Source of the DNA: a virus
Direction: 5' to 3' (one strand)
Virus record (IMG/VR): IMGVR_UViG_3300022562_001652
Location: 49,816 to 113,815 of that record
Length of the DNA stretch: 64,000 nucleotides
The notes beneath the pieces were generated by a model that ran no database searches, was not told the origin of the DNA, and saw nothing but the letters and a program-made list of their open reading frames with translations. Shown in pieces: positions 3,562 through 61,755 of the stretch (its first letter is position 1; the number at the start of each line of letters is the position of its first letter). Made by a program: the position numbers and the translations under genes.

Positions 3562-4629
3562 TCACACCACTTCGAAGCGAACCACGACCCCGGCCGCTTT
3601 CAGCACCTCCAGAATGTACTGCTTCGCGATATCCAGGAGACCTTGCCCTTGAAGATAGACACGGTCGTCATGGACAGGCGTCGTGGCCGTGTCCGACTGC
3701 TCATCGGCATCCGCAGGAGACGCTACGACGGCGTAGAACCCTGCAGGAGGCGTCGCTCCGTTCGCTCCAAGCGTAAAAGTGTCCGACGTGTGAGAGAGAA
3801 TCGGATAGAAGATCGCTCCGTCAGCAAGACGCAAGAAATAGCTGGCATACTGATCAGGAGTGAGGGACAGACCAGAATCCGTAAAGGTGTCAGGACCTAC
3901 TGAAGTCGCCTCCCCGGTGACGTACCAGATAGGGGATATGTAGTCCCCTCGATAGCTGGAGGTGCTGTCTCCGGGAACCGTGACGAAGAACAGAGCCCCT
4001 GCCGTAGGCGTGTTCGAGTACGCGGACCCAACGGTGATCTCCGTTTCGTCGGATACGGCGTCGTATGTCGCGGTAGAAATCGTCTGCTCTTCCCAAGCCC
4101 CGTCGATGAGAACAGAACACCCCAAGCCAACGAGGTCGTCGGCCGCCGCGAGCGCGTTGCCCTTGGTCTGGAACACGGTGGTGGTCGCTCCATCAAGCAC
4201 GACCCCCGACCAACCATGGAGGTAGGAGGCCGTCTCGTTCGTCGTTCCCAAGAGATCGAACGGAACCTCGATGATCGTCTCGTTGGGATTCACCTCGTAG
4301 ACGCGCCACGGCCTTTTTCCATCTGTTACCAGGCTCCCCTGAGAACCGAACACTGCCTCGAGAAGAAAATAGAGCGTGGAAAGCAGCGTCTTGGGCCCAG
4401 GACACGCGATCGCCTGGATGATGCGTCTGTAGAGATCATCGTCGAAGGGTGAGAGATCCGGCCTGCGAATCCGGTAGTTCTGCCCAAGGGCTGTCAAAAA
4501 CTTCCCGAGAGACGTGTCTACGAAGAGCATGTCTCTCAGAGAATCGACCGCGCTCTGCTCCTGCTCCGGAATCTCGGTCGAAGGCGGAACGATCGTGGGG
4601 GAGTCAAAGTAGCTACCTGAGGTAGGCAT
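3562..4629 (-). CDS. Baseplate wedge protein (gpI/gp7-like)
   Basis: 355 aa; 'G..L..LG.....R....DD..YR..I' N-terminus and 'KAAGVVV' C-terminus typical of P2 gpI-like wedge proteins. Confidence 0.6.
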   Translation of the reverse strand: MPTSGSYFDSPTIVPPSTEIPEQEQSAVDSLRDMLFVDTSLGKFLTALGQNYRIRRPDLSPFDDDLYRRIIQAIACPGPKTLLSTLYFLLEAVFGSQGSLVTDGKRPWRVYEVNPNETIIEVPFDLLGTTNETASYLHGWSGVVLDGATTTVFQTKGNALAAADDLVGLGCSVLIDGAWEEQTISTATYDAVSDETEITVGSAYSNTPTAGALFFVTVPGDSTSSYRGDYISPIWYVTGEATSVGPDTFTDSGLSLTPDQYASYFLRLADGAIFYPILSHTSDTFTLGANGATPPAGFYAVVASPADADEQSDTATTPVHDDRVYLQGQGLLDIAKQYILEVLKAAGVVVRFEVV

Positions 4630-6579
4630 CTATTCCTCCTCCAATCCAAGAACGGTGATCGGGTATACAGTGAACTCAGGAGGAGCCGGCCATCCCCCAT
4701 CTCTGAGAACCGTGAACTCAAACCCAGGAGTCGCGGAATCTAGAGAAACGACACCGTTGACGACTCCCTGAAAATTCGGCCCAAACTCCGTTCCGTCGTA
4801 CAGAAAGTCCCAACCCGCACGTCCAGCATAGCGAGCTCGCACGAGCATGCGGCGCATGGGCGCGCTACACAGAACGCGGAAGGTGACAGCCGTGTAGCGG
4901 TAGACTGCCTGGCCAAGCGGAGGAGACACGAACTGGACAGTTGGCCTGTTTCCCGACCCTCCGGGGTTAATGCACGTATCGAACGCCGGCTCAGCGACAC
5001 CCCACGAGAACGTTTCGACCGTCAGATGCCCTTCTGAGTCAAAAGCGTAGGCAGTCAAAGACATGTTCGCAGGCCAACCCCCTCGATCAAAACTAAAACG
5101 CCAACCGTTCGTGATGGCCACCAAGGTGGAGTTCGTTATGTAAGCAGGCTCGAAGCCCACACCCCAAACATGAGCGAGCTCCCCGGAGTGCCCTGTAAAG
5201 GTAAAAATAGGAATGATGAACGTGATGTCGTCGTCTACGTCCGTAAAATCGACAATGATGACATCGTCTGGATCTATCGCGCCTTCCGGAGGATCGACGA
5301 GAGTGATGACAGGCGGAGAACCACTGAACTCCTCGGTTCCAGCAAACTCGAAAAAGATTCCGCCGGCTACCACTGTCCCACCATCAAGGTAGACCGACGG
5401 CGCATCGTCCGCGTTGGTTCGCCACAGACCACCAAACCCTGATGTGCCTGTGGAATAGCCCTGTTTCCACCCAGTAGGTGGGTTAGAGGTACCAAAACCA
5501 ACAGCCATGATCAACATACCGTTTGCTCGATCAGACACGGGGTCATCGAGCGTGAAGGAAAACTCACCGTTGGCGTTGACCGTCTCGGCCTTGCTCTGAA
5601 TGATGCCTGTACCACTCCCCACGCTAGGATCGAAGTTGGCCACCTCGATGATACGAAAATCGTGAATCGAGCCTGTAGACGAGCGTGTCAATCGTATCGT
5701 AACCGTCGACGACACAGTTGGGATCGACATCCTCCAGACGTAGTGCTTCCTGGATGTTCCGCTCGTCGCGAACGACTGCTCCACCGTGAAGGTGTACCCC
5801 GTCGCGTCGATCGTCGCAGATTGTGGATGATTGAGGCAGAAGTGAACGAAGTACTGTCTCCCTTTAATCACGTCTACGTTATGGATGAAGACGGTAGAAG
5901 AAGCCGCTCCTGTGTCGAATGCGAAAGCAACGCGGAAACTAACAGGGTTGGCTCCGTGAAGAATCTCCACGGCGATACCACACCATGACGTATTAGGCCC
6001 TGAGGCAGACACTGAACCAGTAGGGTCAATTCCTTCGAGAGCCTGAAGCTCTAGTCTGTTGCTAGACGCCCCAAGCTGTATGTCCAGCGTCTCTGAAAAA
6101 CCCGTCCTAGGAGTAATGGCGGACGTCGTACTGGCAGCAAAGAAAGCAGCTGTACCATTACGCTGATCGGTGCCGGTAAGACCGAAAGAAAAAGAGGTTC
6201 CGGATCCTGTTCCCTTTGTAGCCGTCCCGACAGCGTTAGCCCCCCAAGTACCGGTAGTGTCAACACCGCTCCACCACTGACCACCCCAACCGATCGCCGT
6301 CTGAGAGGCACCAGCATTTATGGTGACGGCGGTCAGTGTGTCCGTGTCCATCATGGTCCGGAAAAGGCACAGCCTTCTAGTAGTGCTGATCAGGACCGTG
6401 TCTATGAAAACCCACGTCTCTCCCCCATTGCCGGTCAGCGTGGGTTGTGCCGGAGTTGTGTCGTTGGTAAGGGTTGCTACAAGACAGACGCAGTTAGCCG
6501 GAAGCGTCATGTTCCCGACGATCGAAGAAACAGACGCCCCGCTTCCAGAACCAAGACTTCCTGAAAAAGGTGCCGTCAT
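4630..6579 (-). CDS. Beta-rich tail/baseplate accessory protein (tandem beta-sandwich domains)
   Basis: 649 aa, Thr/Ser/Gly-rich; two similar C-terminal domains ending 'FSFDRGGWP' and 'FTVLRDGGWP'. Confidence 0.5.
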   Translation of the reverse strand: MTAPFSGSLGSGSGASVSSIVGNMTLPANCVCLVATLTNDTTPAQPTLTGNGGETWVFIDTVLISTTRRLCLFRTMMDTDTLTAVTINAGASQTAIGWGGQWWSGVDTTGTWGANAVGTATKGTGSGTSFSFGLTGTDQRNGTAAFFAASTTSAITPRTGFSETLDIQLGASSNRLELQALEGIDPTGSVSASGPNTSWCGIAVEILHGANPVSFRVAFAFDTGAASSTVFIHNVDVIKGRQYFVHFCLNHPQSATIDATGYTFTVEQSFATSGTSRKHYVWRMSIPTVSSTVTIRLTRSSTGSIHDFRIIEVANFDPSVGSGTGIIQSKAETVNANGEFSFTLDDPVSDRANGMLIMAVGFGTSNPPTGWKQGYSTGTSGFGGLWRTNADDAPSVYLDGGTVVAGGIFFEFAGTEEFSGSPPVITLVDPPEGAIDPDDVIIVDFTDVDDDITFIIPIFTFTGHSGELAHVWGVGFEPAYITNSTLVAITNGWRFSFDRGGWPANMSLTAYAFDSEGHLTVETFSWGVAEPAFDTCINPGGSGNRPTVQFVSPPLGQAVYRYTAVTFRVLCSAPMRRMLVRARYAGRAGWDFLYDGTEFGPNFQGVVNGVVSLDSATPGFEFTVLRDGGWPAPPEFTVYPITVLGLEEE

Positions 6580-52976: not shown

Positions 52977-53591
52977 GGACACAGGAGTACGATCCCACAG
53001 GGCTTGCGCTCCTGGCGACCGGGCATCGCCGGTGTGGTGAAAACCAGCATGTCGGATTTTACCGTAGTGAAAACCCACAGCAGTGTAGGAAAACCCCACG
53101 ATCCAGGCCCCGGATCGGCGGGATCCGGGGTAGCGGGATGCTACCCGCCCCTAGTGTTTCTGGCCACTTAGGCGTTTTTCCCCTTCCCCAGGGTACTCTG
53201 GCCGGGTTGCTGCATCGTGATCCGGCGAGGCGAAATACGCCTGCTTGCGCCGCTTGCGAGGCTGACGTGGTCAGCCGGAAAGCACCGTCCGAATGGACGA
53301 AACACCACTCCCCTACCCTGGGGACGGCGGGAAATGGTTCCCGTGTGTCCTCTGGTATCGGGGAGTGGTTTGGAGGTTTCCTATGTTCGCTGGATCCCTT
53401 GACGGACGGCTCTTTATTGGGACCTTGGACGACATCATCGACGCGCTCTTTGCGTCGACGATGCCGTCGCCAAGGTTCCGGTCCTTTTCATTCGATATCG
53501 CTTTGGCCACTGACCCTGACGGTGTAGTGACCGTCAGGGCTATCTGTGCCCGTACGGGCACAACCCTTCTAACCCTGTGAGAGGAGAAACC

Positions 53592-53993
53592 ATGAGCGAA
53601 GAAAACAAGATCGAAGGTCAGACTGTCGTGGAGAAGGCTCCGCGCAATCGACGCGAAAGGCGGGAAATGGAGCAGAGCAAGGGGAGTGGTGGTCGTGGTC
53701 AGGATCAGGCCGTGGCCAAGGTCGATGACGTCGACGTCCTGGCCAGCGCGACGGCGGCGATCACTGCACACGCCAACATCGACGCGGAAATCTTCGCGTC
53801 GTTTTCCCCGCTGTACGCCACCCTGGCCAAGGTGGATGTCGCGCTGGCCAGCGCGACGGAAGAAACCCGGCCAACCCTGGAGTTGACGCGAGCCCGCGTG
53901 ATGGATCAGCTCCAGGCTCGTAAGGACGGCGCCGCCCGTGCCTTCCGTGGTCTGTACCGCGACATCATGGTCAAGCACACCGGCGGCAAGTAG
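53592..53993 (+). CDS. Hypothetical protein
   Basis: GAGGAG RBS before ATG 53592. Confidence 0.6.
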   Translation: MSEENKIEGQTVVEKAPRNRRERREMEQSKGSGGRGQDQAVAKVDDVDVLASATAAITAHANIDAEIFASFSPLYATLAKVDVALASATEETRPTLELTRARVMDQLQARKDGAARAFRGLYRDIMVKHTGGK

Positions 53994-54025
53994 GTCTCCC
54001 CGCCCGATCCCACGGGATCGGGCCA

Positions 54026-54073
54026 TCATCTCTCACACCGTGTGAATCTGTGCCCACACGGTGTGAGAGATGA
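54026..54073. repeat. 19-bp perfect inverted repeat with a 10-nt loop
   Basis: TCATCTCTCACACCGTGTG / CACACGGTGTGAGAGATGA; preceded by a 9-bp hairpin at 54002-54023. Confidence 0.85.
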
Positions 54074-54084
54074 GGGAAAACGGG

Positions 54085-54897
54085 ATGAGCAAGCTAGACA
54101 AAGCCTATCGGCTTGAGAGCACCTTGCGTGCGCTCACCGGTACGCTGGATCCGCTGGCGGATCCGCTTTATGACTGCAAGGTCCGGGCTATCCTGGACCT
54201 TGCGGGCGTTGCCCTGCCGTCAGAGTACGACGGCAACGGCGCTATCCGCGTCGTCGACGCGCCCGACGCCAAGGTCCCGTATCGTCGCAACCCGACGGTA
54301 CGGGTGACCTGGCGTGGTGTCCCGTCGGGTCTCGCGACGGTCAAGGATGCGCGTGGTGTCCCGACCGTTCAGGTTGCCTCGCAAGGTGAGGTTACCCACG
54401 GCAATCTCGACCCTCGGATCGAGATTGCCGACCTTAGCCGGCGCAAGGCGCTAGCTCGGGAAGCAATCCGCAAGGCATGGTGCAGGTTGTCTGCACATGC
54501 CAAGCGTAGGATCCGTCGAGCGCTGGCGTCGGGTCAGGTCGCGCTGGCTAGACCTGCTAGCGCGACCTTGGTTGTGCCCGATCGCTGGCCAGCGCTGGCC
54601 GTTCTCGGTCGCATCGTGGCCAGCGTGGCGGTACGCGCAGCAAGGGACGCGCGTACCGCCAGCGTGGCGTCAACCTACGCCGCGCACAACGTCGAGGCGC
54701 CTAGGCCAGCGGTTTCCCGCCAGCCTAAGACGATCTTTCGCGTCGACGGGGAATTCGTTGGCCCACTCCGGCAGGATGCCAAGGTCGGGCATCCCGCCAA
54801 GGTCGGTCGACTGGCTGACCGTGTGCCTTGTACCGAGTGTGGGACAGGAACACGGCACCCGTCGCGACTGTGCGGCGAATGCCTGAAAGGGGAGTGA
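54085..54897 (+). CDS. Basic hypothetical protein with C-terminal Zn finger
   Basis: ~270 aa; CTECG...LCGEC. Confidence 0.55.
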   Translation: MSKLDKAYRLESTLRALTGTLDPLADPLYDCKVRAILDLAGVALPSEYDGNGAIRVVDAPDAKVPYRRNPTVRVTWRGVPSGLATVKDARGVPTVQVASQGEVTHGNLDPRIEIADLSRRKALAREAIRKAWCRLSAHAKRRIRRALASGQVALARPASATLVVPDRWPALAVLGRIVASVAVRAARDARTASVASTYAAHNVEAPRPAVSRQPKTIFRVDGEFVGPLRQDAKVGHPAKVGRLADRVPCTECGTGTRHPSRLCGECLKGE

Positions 54898-54900
54898 AAC

Positions 54901-55113
54901 ATGCGAACCATCAAGATGGCACGTTACCCACTGGCCAGCGCTGTGCTGGCCTACGTGGAGACCCGCGCGGATTCTCGCGCGGCCCACTTTTGGAATCGCC
55001 TTGTCGACCACGCGCACGCGATGATCGCGTGCGACTTCGTCGAGGAGGGAGACATGGACGCGGCGTGGGGCTGCGTCGCGTCCCTTCATGGAGAGCTCGG
55101 GGTGGCAGCGTGA
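54901..55113 (+). CDS. Hypothetical protein
   Basis: 70 aa; GGGGAG RBS. Confidence 0.55.
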   Translation: MRTIKMARYPLASAVLAYVETRADSRAAHFWNRLVDHAHAMIACDFVEEGDMDAAWGCVASLHGELGVAA

Positions 55114-55197
55114 CGATCCACGTCACGCTTTCGTGGCCGGTCGTGGCCGCTTTGTGCGCCGCGATCGTCCTCTGGGCCCTGATCCGGCGCAAGCGCT

Positions 55198-55268
55198 AAA
55201 AGCTGCGCCGCTACTGCGCCGGCCTAGCGGCGAGCGTAGGCTGAAAAGCTGCGCCGCTACTGCGCCGG
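55198..55268 (+). repeat. 25-bp perfect direct repeat with a 21-nt spacer
   Basis: AAAAGCTGCGCCGCTACTGCGCCGG at 55198-55222 and 55244-55268. Confidence 0.85.
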
Positions 55269-55274
55269 TGTTTC

Positions 55275-55326
55275 CCCTACGGGTGGTCCGTAGTGCGCTC
55301 GGGTTCGATTCCCGAGGTAGGGGCCA
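55275..55326 (+). ncRNA. tRNA-like element 1 (52 nt, no anticodon arm)
   Basis: CCCTAC/GTAGGG acceptor; GGG-TGG-TCC mini D arm; CTCGGG-TTCGATT-CCCGAG T arm; G+CCA. Confidence 0.7.
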
Positions 55327-55387
55327 AAAAGCGCGTGTCAGATCGGCACGCGCTAGTGCGTCTAAAAGACGCAAAAGGAGACATACC

Positions 55388-55954
55388 ATGACCAAGCACG
55401 TCATCGTTTCGCGTCATCCCGCCGCCGTGTCTTTCATCCGGGCCGAGTGCCCGGAATTCGCGGACGCGGAAGTGCTCGCGTCCGCCACGGCGGAACAGGT
55501 CCGCGACGCGATCATCGCAGGCAACCTGCCACTTCACCTCGCGGTGGAAGCCCGCGAGGTCTGGGCCGTGGAGTTCGCCGGCTCCGCGCCGCGTGGGGCC
55601 GAGTATGGCCTCGATGAAATGCGCGCGGCGGGGGCGCGCATCGCGAAGTACGCGGTAGCGCACCGGTCGTGCGCCGGTTCGGGATACGAGCACCACGATC
55701 CGTGCTCGTTCCTGGCTTCGGAGCACGTGGTCGACACGCAAACCGAGGAGCGTGTCCCGGTTTGCGTTTGGCATCAGGCCCGGTGTCTTTCCGCAAAGCG
55801 GTACCGGAAGGTTGCGGGTCCCGACGATCCCCAGCCGGATGGGGCTGTATGGGCCCCGTACGGCTGGAACGATGGATGGTATCGGTGGGATTGGATGTAC
55901 CACCTTCCCACCGGGCCGGATGATCGACCGCAACCCACATCCCCACGGCCGTAG
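55388..55954 (+). CDS. Csx16-like (Cas_VVA1548-type) domain protein with a C-terminal extension; putative ring nuclease
   Basis: AAGGAG RBS; 'VSRHPAAV.F', 'GNLPLHLA', 'RGAEYG.DEM.AAGARI..Y.V' match the Csx16 pattern. Confidence 0.65.
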   Translation: MTKHVIVSRHPAAVSFIRAECPEFADAEVLASATAEQVRDAIIAGNLPLHLAVEAREVWAVEFAGSAPRGAEYGLDEMRAAGARIAKYAVAHRSCAGSGYEHHDPCSFLASEHVVDTQTEERVPVCVWHQARCLSAKRYRKVAGPDDPQPDGAVWAPYGWNDGWYRWDWMYHLPTGPDDRPQPTSPRP

Positions 55955-55969
55955 GACCTGTGGGCCATC

Positions 55970-56030
55970 CCCTACGGATGGATCCGCCCGTTTCTGCGGG
56001 TGTCGGGTTCGATTCCCGATGTAGGGGCCA
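55970..56030 (+). ncRNA. tRNA-like element 2 (61 nt)
   Basis: CCCTAC/GTAGGG; GGA-TGGA-TCC; hairpin GCCCG-TTTCTG-CGGGT; GTCGGG-TTCGATT-CCCGAT; G+CCA. Confidence 0.7.
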
Positions 56031-56044
56031 ACAGGAGGAGACGA

Positions 56045-56506
56045 ATGGAGATGATCATCCTCCGGGGCCTGCCCGGCTCCGGGAAAAGCCACTACGCCGC
56101 GCAGTTTGCGGCGAACGAACCAACGAAGAAAGTCGTCGTCGCGTCAGCCGACGACTTCTTCATGACCCCGAACGGGTACCGGTTCGACCCGTTCAAGCTG
56201 ACGGCGGCGCACGCAAGCTGCTTCCGCCGCGTGCTCAACGCATTGGAAGCGGACGTCGACGACATGGTGTTCGTCGACAACACGAACTCCACGGCGTGGG
56301 AGATGTCGCCATACGTGATGTTGGCGAACGTGTTCGATGTGCCCTTCGTCGTCTTCAGGATCGAGTGTGATCCTGAAGTTGCGTACGCACGGCAACGCCA
56401 CGGCGTTCCGCGCGAGACGTTCGATGCGATCGGCCGCCGACTCGCCACGGAGTGGATCCCTCCGTGGTGGGTACAACGAAGTGCGCCGGTAATGCGCCGG
56501 AGGTAG
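56045..56506 (+). CDS. AAA_33 P-loop kinase (polynucleotide-kinase/N4BP2-like)
   Basis: 'ILRGLPGSGKS', 'SADDFF', 'VDNTN...WEM.PY', 'R..HGVP' motifs; AGGAGG RBS. Confidence 0.85.
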   Translation: MEMIILRGLPGSGKSHYAAQFAANEPTKKVVVASADDFFMTPNGYRFDPFKLTAAHASCFRRVLNALEADVDDMVFVDNTNSTAWEMSPYVMLANVFDVPFVVFRIECDPEVAYARQRHGVPRETFDAIGRRLATEWIPPWWVQRSAPVMRRR

Positions 56507-56508
56507 CC

Positions 56509-56727
56509 ATGGAAGACAAGATTCGGGAGATCCGTGAGCGGGTGCGCCTGCGGCGCAAGGATGCTGAGATCGCCAGTTTCAAGGCTGGCGATCCGGTGTC
56601 CTACCGCCGCCGGGGCATGCTCCATTTCGGAGCGATCCTCTCGATCGAGGATGGGATCGCCAAGGTGTCCGCTTCCGGTGGTGGGTACAACGAGGTACCC
56701 ACCACCATGCTCAGACCCTCCAGGTAG
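56509..56727 (+). CDS. Small SH3/KOW-like protein
   Basis: 'FKAGDPVSY......G.I..I' pattern; GGAGG RBS. Confidence 0.5.
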   Translation: MEDKIREIRERVRLRRKDAEIASFKAGDPVSYRRRGMLHFGAILSIEDGIAKVSASGGGYNEVPTTMLRPSR

Positions 56728-56975
56728 AAGGTAGAAAGGAGAAACCGATGCACTGGCCGTAGGACGATCCTTTGGTGCGTTCCAACTAATGGCGACACAC
56801 CGGGATGTGCCTAAGCGCACTGTTCAGTCCCGGAACAAGTCTAGGAGACCGGCATGACTTGGATTAACGCGTGACCGCGAAGTACCGTCGAACGTAGAGA
56901 CGTGCGTCTATCGACGGGCGCGGATAAGCCGTAACGTCTGACGAGCAGGTCAAAACTGTTCAACCGGGCTCGTCG

Positions 56976-57112
56976 CCCACGCCGTGGAAAGCGGCGGGTA
57001 GTGCCTGATCCACAATGTATGTCTTTGTGTTGTGAACAGAAGCGCGCTCTGTCACCCCAAGACTCGTTGGTGGTTCGGAACGAGAGCGGTTCGACTCCGC
57101 TCCGTGGGCCCA
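56976..57112 (+). ncRNA. tRNA-like element 3 (137 nt, multi-hairpin insert)
   Basis: CCCACG/CGTGGG; CCG-TGGAAAG-CGG; three inner hairpins; GAGCGG-TTCGACT-CCGCTC; C+CCA. Confidence 0.65.
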
Positions 57113-57301
57113 AGGAAAAGCTGAGAGGTGCCCGGGTGGCTCCGGGCTAGTCGGGGTGTCTATTTCCCCGATGAACAAGCGGACTAAGCTACCGCAAAAA
57201 AAGGCCCTCGCCCTGGATCGGGCCGCCGCCGGTGAGCGGCGATAGCTGAGGACGCAGAGGGGTTCGCCCCGGTGAAGGCGGATCTCGGCTCTCACCACCT
57301 T

Positions 57302-57348
57302 GCGCAGGAGGGGTTTGTAGGCGAGTTCGACTCTCGCCCTGCGCCCTA
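57302..57348 (+). ncRNA. tRNA-like element 4 (47 nt, minimal)
   Basis: GCGCAG/CTGCGC; GAG-GGG-TTT; GGCGAG-TTCGACT-CTCGCC; C+CTA. Confidence 0.6.
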
Positions 57349-57361
57349 AAAGGAGACAAAG

Positions 57362-57604
57362 ATGGCACGCAAGTGCAAATGCCACGAAAGAGTACGTCAG
57401 GCCATGGATCGTGGAATGGGCTTCCACGAAGCCTACGCTAAGTACGGACGACCTGGGTACCACGAGCACAGGTGTGAGTGTCCCTGCGGATGCAAGCAAG
57501 ACACACTGGGGTACGCATACTGTCCTTACTGCCATTTCGAGCATGCGGAAAGGCGTGGCGAAGTGATCGGGATCCTCGGGCTCCCCTTCAAGAAGAAGGA
57601 TTAA
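57362..57604 (+). CDS. Cys/His-rich small protein
   Basis: 80 aa; CECPCGC...CPYC; AAGGAG RBS. Confidence 0.6.
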   Translation: MARKCKCHERVRQAMDRGMGFHEAYAKYGRPGYHEHRCECPCGCKQDTLGYAYCPYCHFEHAERRGEVIGILGLPFKKKD

Positions 57605-58000
57605 TGCCCACCACGAAGAAGAAGAAGAAGAGCAGCAGGCAGCTGCTGCTTCTGAGCTGGCGCTGTGCCAATTGCAGGAAACTCGTATCCGCTTTCGTGC
57701 GGACGAAGGGCGATCGGGGGCGCGCATGCCTGCGGCTGTTTCCGCGCCACAATTGCGCCGCTGCTGCGCCCGCTGAAGCTTCTACAGGAGGAAAGTGAAG
57801 ATGAACGTTCACGTGATCGAGATCTCTGATGAAGAGGCGTGGATCCTCGCGGTGCGGGCTCGCGTTGCTCTCGGGGCCTCTCTCGAAGAAGCAGCCTCTA
57901 TCACGAAGAGAAACGCTCCAGAGCTCGCCGCCCGCGTTCTGGATCGCATCGGTAGCTGGCCATCTAGCTACCTTGAGCTGCGGGCGCTGCAGGAGCTACC

Positions 58001-58447
58001 ATGAAGGACGAGGGAATCAGAATCAGCCCCAAGCACGGGCTGAACCCAGCTATCCCCAAATGCTTCTACTGCCTGCAGAACAAGAACGAGATCATCCTGG
58101 CAGGCATGATGAAGCCGCTCTCAGGCAAAGGGCGAAACGCCAAGCCTGCGGAGTACGACCCCCAGGCCCCGCAGGGAATGGTCTGGGACAAGGTGCCATG
58201 CTGCGAGTGCGCCGGCTTCATGGAGAAGGGAATCATCCTGATCAGCGCGCTCGACTCTGAAGAGGGAAGCGATAACCCGTACCGCACCGGGGGGTGGGTC
58301 GTGGTCACCGACGGCTTCATCCGTCGCTTGCTCGGCGACACGCCCCTGTGTGAGGACATTTTGAAGAGGCGCGTGGCTTTCCTGCCAGACAAGGTGTGGG
58401 ATCAGATCGGCCTGCCGCGCGGCGAGAAAGAAGAAGAGGGGACATGA
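58001..58447 (+). CDS. Hypothetical Zn-binding phage protein
   Basis: 'SPKHGLNP..CFYC...C.EC...NPYRTG'; AGGAG RBS. Confidence 0.6.
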   Translation: MKDEGIRISPKHGLNPAIPKCFYCLQNKNEIILAGMMKPLSGKGRNAKPAEYDPQAPQGMVWDKVPCCECAGFMEKGIILISALDSEEGSDNPYRTGGWVVVTDGFIRRLLGDTPLCEDILKRRVAFLPDKVWDQIGLPRGEKEEEGT

Positions 58448-58670
58448 AGTCGACAGAAGAGAGACTGCGCACCGCCATTCAGAAGCTCCGGGAAGAGATC
58501 TTCGATCTGGAGCTTGCCCTGCATCAGGAAGGTTTTTGGACAGGCATACTTGTCTCCGCCGTCGAAGTAGAGGCCGCTGCTCACGAGACAGCGAACATCG
58601 TTCGCCGTCGGCTGGATCTGGACAAGAAGCGCGACGAAAATCTCAGTTTCATGGAAAGGAAGGGATAGAA

Positions 58671-60116
58671 ATGGCCGTCTTCGAAGCGAGCCCCGAAGGT
58701 TTCCGCGCCCAGAACATGGGCCGTCCGCCCGCGCATCTGGTGCGCGAGCTCATCCAGAATGCCTTTGACGAGGAAGCGTCCGTCGTCAAGGTGTTCATCA
58801 AGTGGACGCCGAAGCGTGGCGTCCAGCTGCGCGTCACAGACGATGTCCCCGGCGGCATCCGCGACGAGCGTCTGGTCTTCACGATCTGGGAGACGGACAA
58901 GGCCGATTCTCCGACGAAGCGTGGGCGCATGGGCCGTGGCCTCAAGGAGGTCGTGTCGGTCTCAGACCGCACGATCGTGTCGACGCAGGGAAGAAACGCG
59001 ACGGTCTTCGAACGCGTCGCCGACGGCGACTGGAAACGCTATACCTCGAACAAGTTCCCACCGCCGACACAGGGAACTGTCGTCGAGGCCAAGATCAAGT
59101 CGTGGAAACAGAAGGACGTCGACGACGTCGTCGAGTACCTGCGCCACATCCGCGCTCCGAATCACATGATGTTCTACGTGAACGATGAGTGGATCCGCGC
59201 TGCTCCTGCGCTGGAAGAATACGAAATGTACCTTCCCTCCGTGACCTTCGTGACCGAAGAGGGCGAACGCCGCGTGAGCAACCGCAGCTTCAACACCAAG
59301 GTCCAGCTCTTTCACGAAGCTGAGAGCTGGGTCTACGAGATGGGGTTGCCGATCGAGAAGATCGAATTTCCCATGTCGATCGACGTCGGGCAGCGCGTGC
59401 CGTTGAGAGAGCAGCGGGACACTCTCACCAAGAACTACAGAGACGAGCTCTTCGCGAAGCTGGTGAGCAGACGGATCGACGTGATCCCGTCCGAAGAGCT
59501 CAAAGACAACTACGTGCTCAATGCGGCGAGCTACGGCTTTCTCATGAGCGACGCTGCACAGAAGAAGATCGCGGATGCCTGGACAGAAGGCAAGCCGTAT
59601 GCCGCAACCCCCACCATGATGTCCGTCGCGACGGGTGCCCACATCCCCGTGGTGAACCTGCGCACGCTGCCTGAGGCGATTCGCGAGCTCGTCAAGCGGG
59701 TCGGATCCGATGTGAAGGAAGTCATCCGCTCACGCAAGGAAGCGGCGACCTCGACATCCCAACTCACGGCGTCTCATCGACGCCTCATCCAGGCTTGGGA
59801 GTGGCTCGCCGAGAAGATCGGTCGCCCAGTCTTCGTCCGAATCATGGACGGTAGCGTGTCGTCACGGGCGGACTTCAGCCCGGAATCTCGCGTCCTCACT
59901 CTCTATCGAGAGGTCGCAGGCGACGCCTTCTTCTCGGAGCCGTTTGGAGCCGAGCAACTCGGCCTGTTCATCCACGAGGTCTCACACTGGTCCCGCCGTG
60001 AAAACCAGCACGGTCTCGACTTCGTCTCGGACGCGGAGAAGGTGGGAGGGCAGGTCGCCAGCGTCTTCCTGAAGAGTTTCAGCGAGGCTCACGAAGTGCT
60101 TCGTTCTGTGCAATGA
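58671..60116 (+). CDS. GHKL (HATPase_c) ATPase with a C-terminal HExxH domain
   Basis: 'RELIQNAFD' N-box, 'DDVPGG', 'RGRMGRGLK', 'GT.V'; C-terminal IHEVSH. Confidence 0.75.
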   Translation: MAVFEASPEGFRAQNMGRPPAHLVRELIQNAFDEEASVVKVFIKWTPKRGVQLRVTDDVPGGIRDERLVFTIWETDKADSPTKRGRMGRGLKEVVSVSDRTIVSTQGRNATVFERVADGDWKRYTSNKFPPPTQGTVVEAKIKSWKQKDVDDVVEYLRHIRAPNHMMFYVNDEWIRAAPALEEYEMYLPSVTFVTEEGERRVSNRSFNTKVQLFHEAESWVYEMGLPIEKIEFPMSIDVGQRVPLREQRDTLTKNYRDELFAKLVSRRIDVIPSEELKDNYVLNAASYGFLMSDAAQKKIADAWTEGKPYAATPTMMSVATGAHIPVVNLRTLPEAIRELVKRVGSDVKEVIRSRKEAATSTSQLTASHRRLIQAWEWLAEKIGRPVFVRIMDGSVSSRADFSPESRVLTLYREVAGDAFFSEPFGAEQLGLFIHEVSHWSRRENQHGLDFVSDAEKVGGQVASVFLKSFSEAHEVLRSVQ

Positions 60117-60600
60117 TCCCAGGCAATAAAAGAACGGCGTCGCACGGTGGGATGTGCCTAGCTGACTCGACACGCCAGGGCACATCAAGGAGATCTCGAT
60201 GGGAATCAAGGTTCTTGGAACTCAGGGACTTGTAGAGTATGCGTGGCGCCACATAGGCGAGATCAAGGTACTCTACTACCGCTTCTTGGATCGGAAGAAC
60301 GACTGGAAGCCGGTTGCGTACTAAGGGGGAAAGAGATGTCGCTTAGCCGCGAACAGATCGGAAGAGGACGGCGGTGGTCGTTCATCAACGGACGCTGGCA
60401 CAAGCGTCAGATGTCGCGGTGGCGACGTCGTCAGCAGCGCTTGGCTCTTTCCCGTGGGGAAGAGCCTGTTGTGGGACGCGACTACGTCGGCTTCGCTTCT
60501 TAAGGAAAGGAGGTGATGTGGAATGGGCCCGCTCCGGGAAAGCCGGGGAGCCAGTAAACGCTAGGCCGAAACCCTGATTTATGTAGGCCATTGATTGAAA

Positions 60601-60689
60601 GAACGGCGTATCTCAAGTGGTAGAGAACCTGCAACGATCTCGTAAGGTCTTGTAGGAAGATGCCGGTTCGAATCCGGTCGCCGTTCCCA
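60601..60689 (+). tRNA. Non-canonical tRNA with a 29-nt extended anticodon arm (identity unclear)
   Basis: AACGGCG/CGCCGTT acceptor, TA, TCTC-AAGTGGTA-GAGA D arm, GCCGG-TTCGAAT-CCGGT T arm, C+CCA; G at -1. Confidence 0.7.
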
Positions 60690-60723
60690 AAGAAGTAGGT
60701 TTCACCAAAGAGGAGGAAACGCC

Positions 60724-61020
60724 ATGCACGACTGCCCATGCTGTGGGGAGGAAGTCGTCTATTCGGACAACCCTTCCGAGCTCTGCGACAGCTGCGAGTC
60801 CGCCGGGTGTGAGCCACACGAATGTGGCTGCGTCTGGTCTTGTGGAATCGGAAACCAGTGCGACGAGGAAGGCGTCTATCTGGACTGTCAAGTCCCGCAG
60901 TGCTTCGAGTGCGGGACGAGAGCGTCGCTGATGAACGACGGTTTCTGGCACTCCAACTGTGAAGAAGACGAGTGCACGAACGCGAACAAGTCGTGGCCTG
61001 CCACGATGCAATCCGCTTGA
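60724..61020 (+). CDS. Cys-rich acidic small protein
   Basis: 98 aa with many Cys; GAGGAGG RBS. Confidence 0.6.
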   Translation: MHDCPCCGEEVVYSDNPSELCDSCESAGCEPHECGCVWSCGIGNQCDEEGVYLDCQVPQCFECGTRASLMNDGFWHSNCEEDECTNANKSWPATMQSA

Positions 61021-61034
61021 AGAAGGAGGGGCTG

Positions 61035-61755
61035 ATGACGGTCGTCTCAAAATTGAAAGAGCTCGAGGAAAAGAAAAAAGACTTCCTCAAGAACGCTCCG
61101 CCTCCTCCCACAAAGGAATTCTCGTGGGGTCTGTTCGAAAACCTCCTAAACGGGTACGTCAAGGACGCACTTCACGAGTCTCCTGTTGACTGGAGATGGA
61201 ACTCTGAGGATCAGACCTTCGACTTCGAACTTGCACAGGCTGTTCGAGTAGGTGGGTTTGACGGTGTCATGACTCGAACCTTCACGTTCAACCCTCACCA
61301 CGATCTGGTGAAAGAGTTAAAGAGGCTGTACGAAGAGCGAAAGCGCTGGATCGGCACCTGCATCAAGACCTCTTTCTCGGGAGGAACACCATGAACGCAC
61401 CGACAACTGAAACCAAGAGGCGGTATCCGATCGTCGCGTCGCGCTGGTACAACGCGACAGAATGCGCGAGCATCGCGAAGATTCTGAAGGCTGGGGATCA
61501 TCGCGCCCTCCGAGACGGTGCTTGGGGAATCAACCTGGCCCGTGCTGTGGACCCTTACCGCGAGCTCACCGAGCTCGTCTCGGCTTTCCGATGACGCTCA
61601 AGGCCTTCGTTAAGAAGTACCGCCGGGAACTGGACGGCTACATCCAAAGTGCTGTTCCCGGTGCTCGAAAGAACGACGAAGAGCGTCAGCTGTGGGTGTT
61701 GAACGACGAGTATCTCTACCACTGGGCTCTTCGTTCCGGTGTGAAGGAGATCTGA
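61035..61755 (+). other. Three small coupled hypothetical genes
   Basis: ~61035-61394, 61391-61594 and 61591-61755 with SD sites and overlaps. Confidence 0.5.

Follow-up and report, generated by a model that had tools for sequence, protein, structure and literature searches.

RNase P, RNase Z and the CCA-adding enzyme all recognize a transfer RNA (tRNA) by its elbow and by the 12-bp stack of its acceptor and T stems. Hairpins consisting of an acceptor stem, a T stem and a T loop are cleaved correctly by the E. coli RNase P RNA, with a preference for a 3' CCA, and RNase P also cuts the phage M3 RNA, the P1/P7 C4 RNA, the precursor of transfer-messenger RNA (pre-tmRNA) and some messenger RNAs (mRNAs) (PMC11143913). 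The t-elements of plant mitochondria contribute to mRNA end formation (PMC1920247). Unusual acceptor/T splits of 8/5, 9/4, 8/4 and 9/3, with the stack kept at or near 12-13 bp, are known in tRNAs (PMC5389517, PMC7609411); in the searched passages of PMC7609411 a 6/6 split is absent. Here we analyze four tRNA-like elements with a predicted 6/6 split that lie in the right 64 kb (referred to as the window) of the 113,815-bp (~114 kb) record IMGVR_UViG_3300022562_001652 of an uncultured phage. An earlier note on this DNA had proposed them as a family of anticodon-less tRNA mimics, and had counted a match to an existing Rfam family as evidence against the proposal.

At gathering scores, no Rfam family claimed any of the four elements (coordinates in Table 1), and the canonical tRNA model RF00005 matched none of them even at E up to 10. 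ARAGORN called only one gene in the window, at 60602-60689, and none of the four elements. All of them have a T loop of the canonical TTCRANN type; none has a 5-bp anticodon stem with a 7-nt loop or the 7-bp acceptor/5-bp T stem of a canonical tRNA. Element 2 aligned end to end with the mascRNA-menRNA model RF01684 (27.8 bits, E 0.022, gathering score 42.5), and no match to this model was obtained for elements 1, 3 and 4. Like element 2, the mascRNA is a small tRNA look-alike that has three arms, the anticodon arm being shortened. It is excised from a longer transcript by RNase P and RNase Z, but it is a vertebrate nuclear RNA with a 7/5 model structure. The tRNA-like domain of tmRNA shares with the elements the acceptor, the T arm, the reduced D loop with a UGG-type motif, the CCA end and the lack of an anticodon arm; however, the G3:U70 alanine mark, the mRNA-like domain and the pseudoknots of tmRNA are not present in the elements (position 3:70 is C-G or G-C in all four), and tmRNA is 7/5. 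The cyano_tmRNA model matched the T arm only (12 bits). For element 3 or the 634-nt non-coding stretch around it, ARAGORN gave only noise-level permuted tmRNA candidates at the 80% threshold and none at default settings. Read as the 3' portion of a 95-nt tRNA of the selenocysteine type, element 4 scored only 20.8 bits (E 2.1), and an attP-type tRNA fragment was ruled out by the presence of both acceptor strands.

The t-elements and the tRNA punctuation of mitochondria resemble the phage elements as non-decoding tRNA-like folds that adjoin protein genes, and they contribute there, via tRNA-processing enzymes, to forming the 5' and 3' ends of the mRNAs. They are organellar and defined by mapped ends, with no 6/6 split described, whereas the phage elements encode CCA and are known from sequence alone. 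The synthetic minihelices, M3, C4 and pre-tmRNA share an acceptor on a T stem-loop and a 3' CCA, yet they are laboratory models or single cases, whereas the phage elements form a family that occurs naturally in several copies, has a D-loop mimic and shows its junction shifted to 6/6. The T4 species 1 and 2 RNAs (rnaC and rnaD) are small stable RNAs from a phage tRNA cluster; rnaC (139 nt, near the size of element 3) has a canonical T arm, and only this arm matched the covariance model R2 described below (14.5 bits, model positions 22-38), with no clean 6-bp acceptor or CCA tail seen. The tRNAs with 8/5, 9/4, 8/4 and 9/3 splits are decoders with anticodons in which a longer acceptor is gained at the expense of the T stem, whereas in the phage elements the acceptor is shorter and the T stem longer. 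No published description or Rfam family of phage 6/6 tRNA top-half mimics was found, and judged by the sequence comparisons given below, they are an unannotated family present in multiple unrelated phages.

All four elements lie on the + strand and follow one plan, in which a 6-bp acceptor stem is stacked directly on a 6-bp T stem with a continuous 3' strand. The sequence scan found in each of them a T arm followed at once by a 3' strand that pairs perfectly with an upstream 6-nt strand. The stem pairs are intact in 48 of 48 positions (no mismatches) over three different acceptor and four different T-stem sequences, with compensatory changes. The T loops (TTCGATT twice, TTCGACT twice) are each closed by G53:C61, and four of the five copies of GTTCGAYTC in the 64 kb are the + strand loops of the elements, at 55303, 56007, 57089 and 57325. 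Element 1 has a marginal 3-bp D-like stem and no anticodon arm. In element 2 a GGA-UGGA-UCC D-like hairpin is present, and a 6-bp hairpin with a tetraloop replaces the anticodon arm. Element 3 combines a CCG-UGGAAAG-CGG hairpin with an insert of ~90-100 nt and has, besides the perfect outer 5' strand, a second, imperfect inner one at 57056. Element 4 has AGGGG only, with no D-like stem and a total of 11 nt from position 7 to the 6-bp T stem. The unconstrained minimum-energy fold is a cloverleaf-like form in element 2 only (z -2.9); in elements 1, 3 and 4 the tRNA-like fold lies 1-3 kcal/mol above the minimum. No such mini element turned up in any of five mononucleotide shuffles of 2 Mb, and a chance origin of the design is excluded.

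A seventh acceptor pair (7:66) is impossible in element 1 (G.G) and in element 3 (C.C) and possible in element 2 (G.U) and element 4 (G-C), and these last two, taken alone, are ambiguous in sequence between 6/6 and 7/5. An extra pair -1:73 could form in element 1 (C55274 with G73) and in element 3 (G56975:C73). The 6/6 geometry was assessed in the alignment A5 of 14 short elements of this design (minis), in which the column of the sixth T pair was fixed beside the T stem; model-fitted alignments were used because MAFFT misaligned the 5' strands. Under 6/6, 98.2% of the cells were paired, with a covariation score of 1.13 vs. 0.27 in shuffles. The sixth T pair was present in 12 of the 14 minis (CG 5, GC 4, AU 2, GU 1, unpaired 2), and 7:66 in 4 of 13, so that 9 of 13 cells lost their pairing when 7:66 was put in its place. 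Ordinary phage tRNAs of these loci had 7:66 in 131 of 131 and in 899 of 933 cases (96%), and a sixth T pair was possible in 23 of 131 and in 151 of 933 (16%). Among the seven mini families from the TTCGATT pattern scan described below, five had the sixth T pair and two were 7/5; L173 and L181 are 7/5. On this comparative evidence, 6/6 is a real and frequent subtype among phage minis and not a universal rule. The UGG-type motif 2-5 nt after the acceptor is common to the family in A5, and several members show covariation in the 3-bp stem that encloses it (GGA/UCC, CCG/CGG, CCC/GGG, GCA/UGC), a stem that is weak in element 1 and absent in element 4.

Most of what the earlier note had said about structure stood. 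The positions of the four elements, their shared plan with compensatory changes, the missing seventh pair in elements 1 and 3 and the lack of a 7-nt anticodon loop were all borne out, and its 6/6 geometry held against independent minis and the baseline of 933 phage tRNAs. Its 3-bp D-like stem had to be reduced to the shared UGG-type motif. Covariation among homologues, which it had named as a check, argues against decaying pseudo-tRNAs, and the mimic family itself proved real, with covariance models recovering members across unrelated phage contigs.

These relatives were sought in 160 loci carrying a homologue of the kinase encoded after element 2 (2 Mb scanned). The metagenome contig L046 holds three elements among ordinary tRNA genes and small open reading frames (ORFs), namely two 49-nt minis ending in T-CCA and G-CCA and one insert-bearing element ending in G-CTA. 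In L082 a mini (4309-4355) lies 12 nt past a stop codon and 20 nt before the next start, within a promoter-bounded operon. Near-identical promoter-like sequences (TTTACTTC..AAG.TGAAAT.GGT.TATAAT) at L082:3565-3595 and 5407-5435 flank a five-gene unit, which holds this mini and the kinase homologue. The match L089:9217-9261 fits the model but overlaps the end of an ORF and lacks the D-like motif, and its membership in the family is doubtful. With a covariance model (R1) made solely from the two L046 minis, elements 4, 2 and 1 were recovered in 234 kb at E 0.0012 to 0.06; they were among the top matches other than the minis themselves, and element 4 was the first of these (25.7 bits, E 0.0012). 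The model R2, trained solely on the window, L046 and L089 elements, matched L217, L196, L223 and L250 at E 4e-10 to 6e-06; element 1 scored 48 bits with it, and the inner version of element 3 was found at E 0.027. A search of the whole phage genome with R2 gave no fifth element, no further minis were found in the whole L082 and L089 records, and over ~1.9 Mb of kinase-neighbour loci R1 and R2 mostly matched pieces of real tRNAs.

A pattern scan of IMG/VR (TGGT, a short gap, a T arm with TTCGATT, and CCA), which was not conditioned on 7:66 or on the sixth T pair, yielded seven mini families in 119 loci, none of them called by ARAGORN. The minis found were those of the L196 group of five related contigs, of L217 (two) and of L250, L249 and L173 (one each). 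When the loop was changed to TTCGAAT, the scan gave nothing convincing in 111 loci; the minis strongly favour a pyrimidine at T-loop position 59 (TTCGATT/TTCGACT), and TTCGAAT is the loop that ordinary tRNAs have most often. The element pattern had no match in bacterial genomes, and no relatives of L046 were found. The settings of the relatives vary. The L249 mini lies between tRNA-Trp and tRNA-Val and the L250 mini 5 nt before tRNA-Arg; L217b and L046a stand directly behind promoter-like sequences, in 5' leaders; in L046b the acceptor's 3' strand contains the likely ribosome-binding site of the next gene, and an HNH endonuclease gene follows.

Within the window, all four elements are on the coding strand in non-coding spacers. 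Two observations mark the elements as non-coding. In the flanking genes, read from the starts at 55388 and 56045, the Pfam domains set in at residues 3-6; and GC content by codon position, which follows a high-low-high pattern in real genes, is flat across 55088-55387 and 56728-57361 as well as in the antisense ORFs. The in-frame ORF 55088-55954 and three antisense ORFs (56960-57727, 55277-56092 and 56092-56820) were rejected as coding alternatives, having neither family matches nor codon periodicity. The start of element 2 is 15 nt past the stop codon at 55952-55954. The next start codon lies 14 nt beyond the end of element 2 (ATG at 56045) and 13 nt beyond that of element 4 (ATG at 57362), with a ribosome-binding site immediately after the tail in each case, as the earlier note had stated. 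Elements 2 and 4 share this placement with their relatives in L082, L046 (a and b), the L196 group and L217 (a and b): all are on the coding strand, in spacers that put them 1-60 nt upstream of an ORF that has a ribosome-binding site.

The retention of the 12-bp total stack and of the processing features together with the loss of what decoding needs suggests substrates of tRNA enzymes. Our preferred reading, put forward tentatively and at a little less than even confidence, is that the elements serve as substrates for host RNase P and 3' tRNA processing, which would split polycistronic transcripts just upstream of the next ribosome-binding site. The elements would be transcribed within a rightward polycistronic RNA, and each would fold into the top half of a tRNA, with a 12-bp coaxial stack (6 + 6), a T loop and a small UGG loop mimicking the D-loop side of the elbow. 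Host RNase P would cut at the 5' edge of the acceptor and host 3' tRNA-processing enzymes would trim to the encoded CCA; in element 4 the cut would fall behind the discriminator, followed by addition of CCA. Severing of the transcript would thus occur at fixed points, with the downstream message starting just before its ribosome-binding site, and a CCA-ended RNA of 45-60 nt (137 nt in the case of element 3) would come free, either as a by-product or perhaps with its own role. Protein family searches found no CCA-adding enzyme, Rnl1, Rnl2-type ligase or RtcB encoded by the phage, and because it encodes no CCA-adding enzyme or RNA ligase, enzymes of the host would be used. A structure-specific signal acting in cis fits, because there are several copies of differing sequence per operon. 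The tRNA punctuation suggested in the earlier note came out as plausible from sequence, with both the spacer position and the known hairpin substrates of RNase P (PMC11143913) fitting it. Nothing was found in support of its suggestions that the elements are decoys for tRNA-targeting toxins and that element 3 is a scaffold for cargo RNA, and the "early operon" was not established, as no sigma-70-like promoter was detected in 53500-61500.

Several observations weigh against processing in cis. Some spacers of the operon contain no element, and elements 3 and 4 lie within a 634-nt non-coding stretch and not tightly between two genes. In elements 1-3, nucleotide +1 is C and nucleotide -1 can pair with 73, so that cleavage by RNase P might be shifted or weakened. 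Some related minis are located within tRNA arrays (L249, L250), where a pure cutting signal would be redundant, which points to a role for the released RNA. No close relatives of the phage, and no orthologues of the four copies, were found for comparison, and the pair counts rest on a small family sample and on an alignment fitted to a model.

A role in trans, in which the CCA-ended mini RNAs occupy or divert a protein that inspects or attacks the acceptor end or elbow of tRNAs, seems rather unlikely. The candidate targets would be a defence toxin that modifies the acceptor end or a host tRNA enzyme. Minis embedded in tRNA arrays would mature like tRNAs, the elbow mimic (UGG motif and T loop) and CCA are retained, and the neighbours of the window elements are Csx16-like and polynucleotide-kinase-like, with a kinase homologue placed in the RNA-repair cluster of phage PVP-SE1. 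However, acceptors and discriminators (G, C, T) vary between copies and give no single conserved identity, no kinase or Csx16 homologue is found near the minis of L196, L217, L250, L249 and L173, and RNAs with no anticodon loop could not distract anticodon nucleases. The stronger form of this idea we consider unlikely, namely that phages widely encode 6/6 mimics matured to stable 45-60-nt trans-acting RNAs, which soak up enzymes or toxins reading or modifying the tRNA 3' end or elbow, the 6/6 junction passing the processing rulers and being rejected by translation.

Even less probable, in our estimate, is that the folds remain uncut on the message, shielding it from exonucleases or 5'-end-dependent decay or tuning the translation of the adjacent gene. 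The leader position of L217b and L046a directly behind promoter-like sequences and the ribosome-binding site held in the acceptor 3' strand of L046b would suit such a function, but a plain hairpin would suffice for it, and the T loop, the UGG motif, the 12-bp ruler length and the N-CCA end are left unexplained. Least of all do we expect functionless, decaying phage tRNA genes minus their anticodon arms, which we regard as very improbable. The phage does have other odd tRNA-like genes (60602-60689 and genome 31417-31700), phage tRNA regions are recombination hot spots, and an HNH endonuclease gene lies behind L046b. Nevertheless, decay is unlikely because of the flawless stems, the covariation of the same design in unrelated phages and the shifted register: a remnant would keep the 7/5 register, whereas in the minis 7:66 is at chance level (4/13) and the new sixth T pair is kept (12/14).

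The genes around the four elements are all on the + strand (Table 1).

Table 1. Predicted tRNA-like elements and surrounding features, in window coordinates.
Feature	Position	Strand	Description
Element 1	55275..55326	+	52-nt top-half mimic; acceptor CCCTAC/GTAGGG; GGUGGUCC D-loop mimic; T stem CTCGGG/CCCGAG; TTCGATT; G-CCA
Element 2	55970..56030	+	61-nt three-arm mini cloverleaf; acceptor CCCTAC/GTAGGG; T stem GTCGGG/CCCGAT; TTCGATT; G-CCA
Element 3	56976..57112	+	137 nt with insert; acceptor CCCACG/CGTGGG; T stem GAGCGG/CCGCTC; TTCGACT; C-CCA
Element 4	57302..57348	+	47 nt; acceptor GCGCAG/CTGCGC; T stem GGCGAG/CTCGCC; TTCGACT; C-CTA
Gene between elements 1 and 2	55388..55954	+	Cas_VVA1548 (Csx16-like); Pfam PF09652, E 7.7e-08, residues 6-90
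Gene after element 2	56045..56506	+	P-loop kinase, AAA_33/polynucleotide-kinase type; PF13671, E 1.7e-15; phrog_2071, phrog_505
Non-coding stretch (634 nt) holding elements 3 and 4	56728..57361	+	No codon-position GC periodicity
Cys-rich 80-aa gene directly 3' of element 4	57362..57604	+	
Motif TGCGCCG-N4-TGCGCC, 4 copies	55204-55221, 55250-55267, 56482-56499, 57754-57771	+	Only occurrences in the 114-kb genome

The closest homologue found for the kinase is 51% identical, and searches with Pfam and PHROG profiles gave no family match for the Cys-rich product. In the Salmonella phage PVP-SE1 (L161, 77-80 kb), a homologue of the kinase is clustered with a metallophosphoesterase and RNA ligase 1, and this cluster looks, from its gene content, like a split RNA repair set of the T4 Pnkp/Rnl1 type; unlike in PVP-SE1, in the phage studied the kinase is present and the ligase absent. 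A general link between minis and the kinase gene was rejected, as the minis of L196, L217, L250, L249 and L173 have no kinase homologue nearby. The portal protein of the phage is ~39% identical to the portals of SPO1-like phages, and the ends of the record show a repeat of 144 bp only. No close relative was found in the phage collection or IMG/VR by DNA, by the Csx16-like protein, by the portal protein or by the element pattern.

The four copies of the TGCGCCG-N4-TGCGCC motif are all in one 2.6-kb block, each 10-40 nt before element 1 or a ribosome-binding site, and two of them, exact copies (55204..55267), stand immediately upstream of element 1. The motif may represent a phage-specific promoter, a site for a regulator, or a small GCGC hairpin whose loop has 7 nt. 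A possible 29-codon ORF (55110-55199, +) encoding a hydrophobic peptide ends 75 nt before element 1, and its GTG start overlaps the TGA stop of the upstream gene 54901-55113. The non-coding stretch with elements 3 and 4, whose folding energy is not unusual, has at its start (56737-56760) an ORF of four codons (ATG CAC TGG CCG TAG) behind a strong ribosome-binding site (AAAGGAGA).

Other odd tRNA-like genes were noticed in this phage and in the loci scanned. The gene at 60602-60689 (+), called Cys by ARAGORN, scores 44.7 bits with the Rfam tRNA model and has the 7/5 geometry. The anticodon arm forms a long helix (7+4 bp) whose loop has 6 nt, so that a usable anticodon is missing; CCA is encoded, and the acceptor AACGGCG/CGCCGTT may be extended by a G-1:C73 pair. 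Outside the window, at genome 31417-31700 (-) (L163:11517-11800), a 284-nt tRNA-like RNA with an insert of ~250 nt has a closely similar acceptor (AACGGTG/CACCGTT), G-1:C73, CCA and a canonical T arm. Two tandem tRNAs lie at genome 16945-17101 (-), also outside the window, one with the loop GUAAUGA (anticodon AAU) closed by an A.C mismatch and the second with the anticodon UUA (predicted to read UAA) and G.G as the closing mismatch. Unrelated phage contigs that have the kinase homologue also contain the AGUAAUGAC / CGUAAUGAC loop (L005:35-104, L070:10737-10805 and L070(-):15225-15298), and the odd Ile-type tRNA looks conserved. The loci L106, L108, L120, L132, L149, L153, L154 and L159 contain many tRNA-like genes with 7/5 geometry, normal D arms and 40-130 extra central nucleotides on which ARAGORN is silent; these may be intron-bearing or insert-bearing tRNAs.

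What is new here is the comparative support for a 6/6 junction in phage tRNA mimics, elements that standard tRNA finders and Rfam miss entirely. A simple rule, the sixth T pair present and 7:66 absent, separates the mimics from real tRNAs, and with a covariance model like R2 the family could be annotated throughout phage metagenomes. With their 12-bp stack divided 6/6, the elements amount to a natural experiment in how tRNA is measured by RNase P, RNase Z and the CCA-adding enzyme, and they could be used as compact parts for RNA processing. If the proposed processing is true, phages would use stripped-down tRNA shapes as portable cut marks, or as small RNAs themselves, in operons full of unknown genes.

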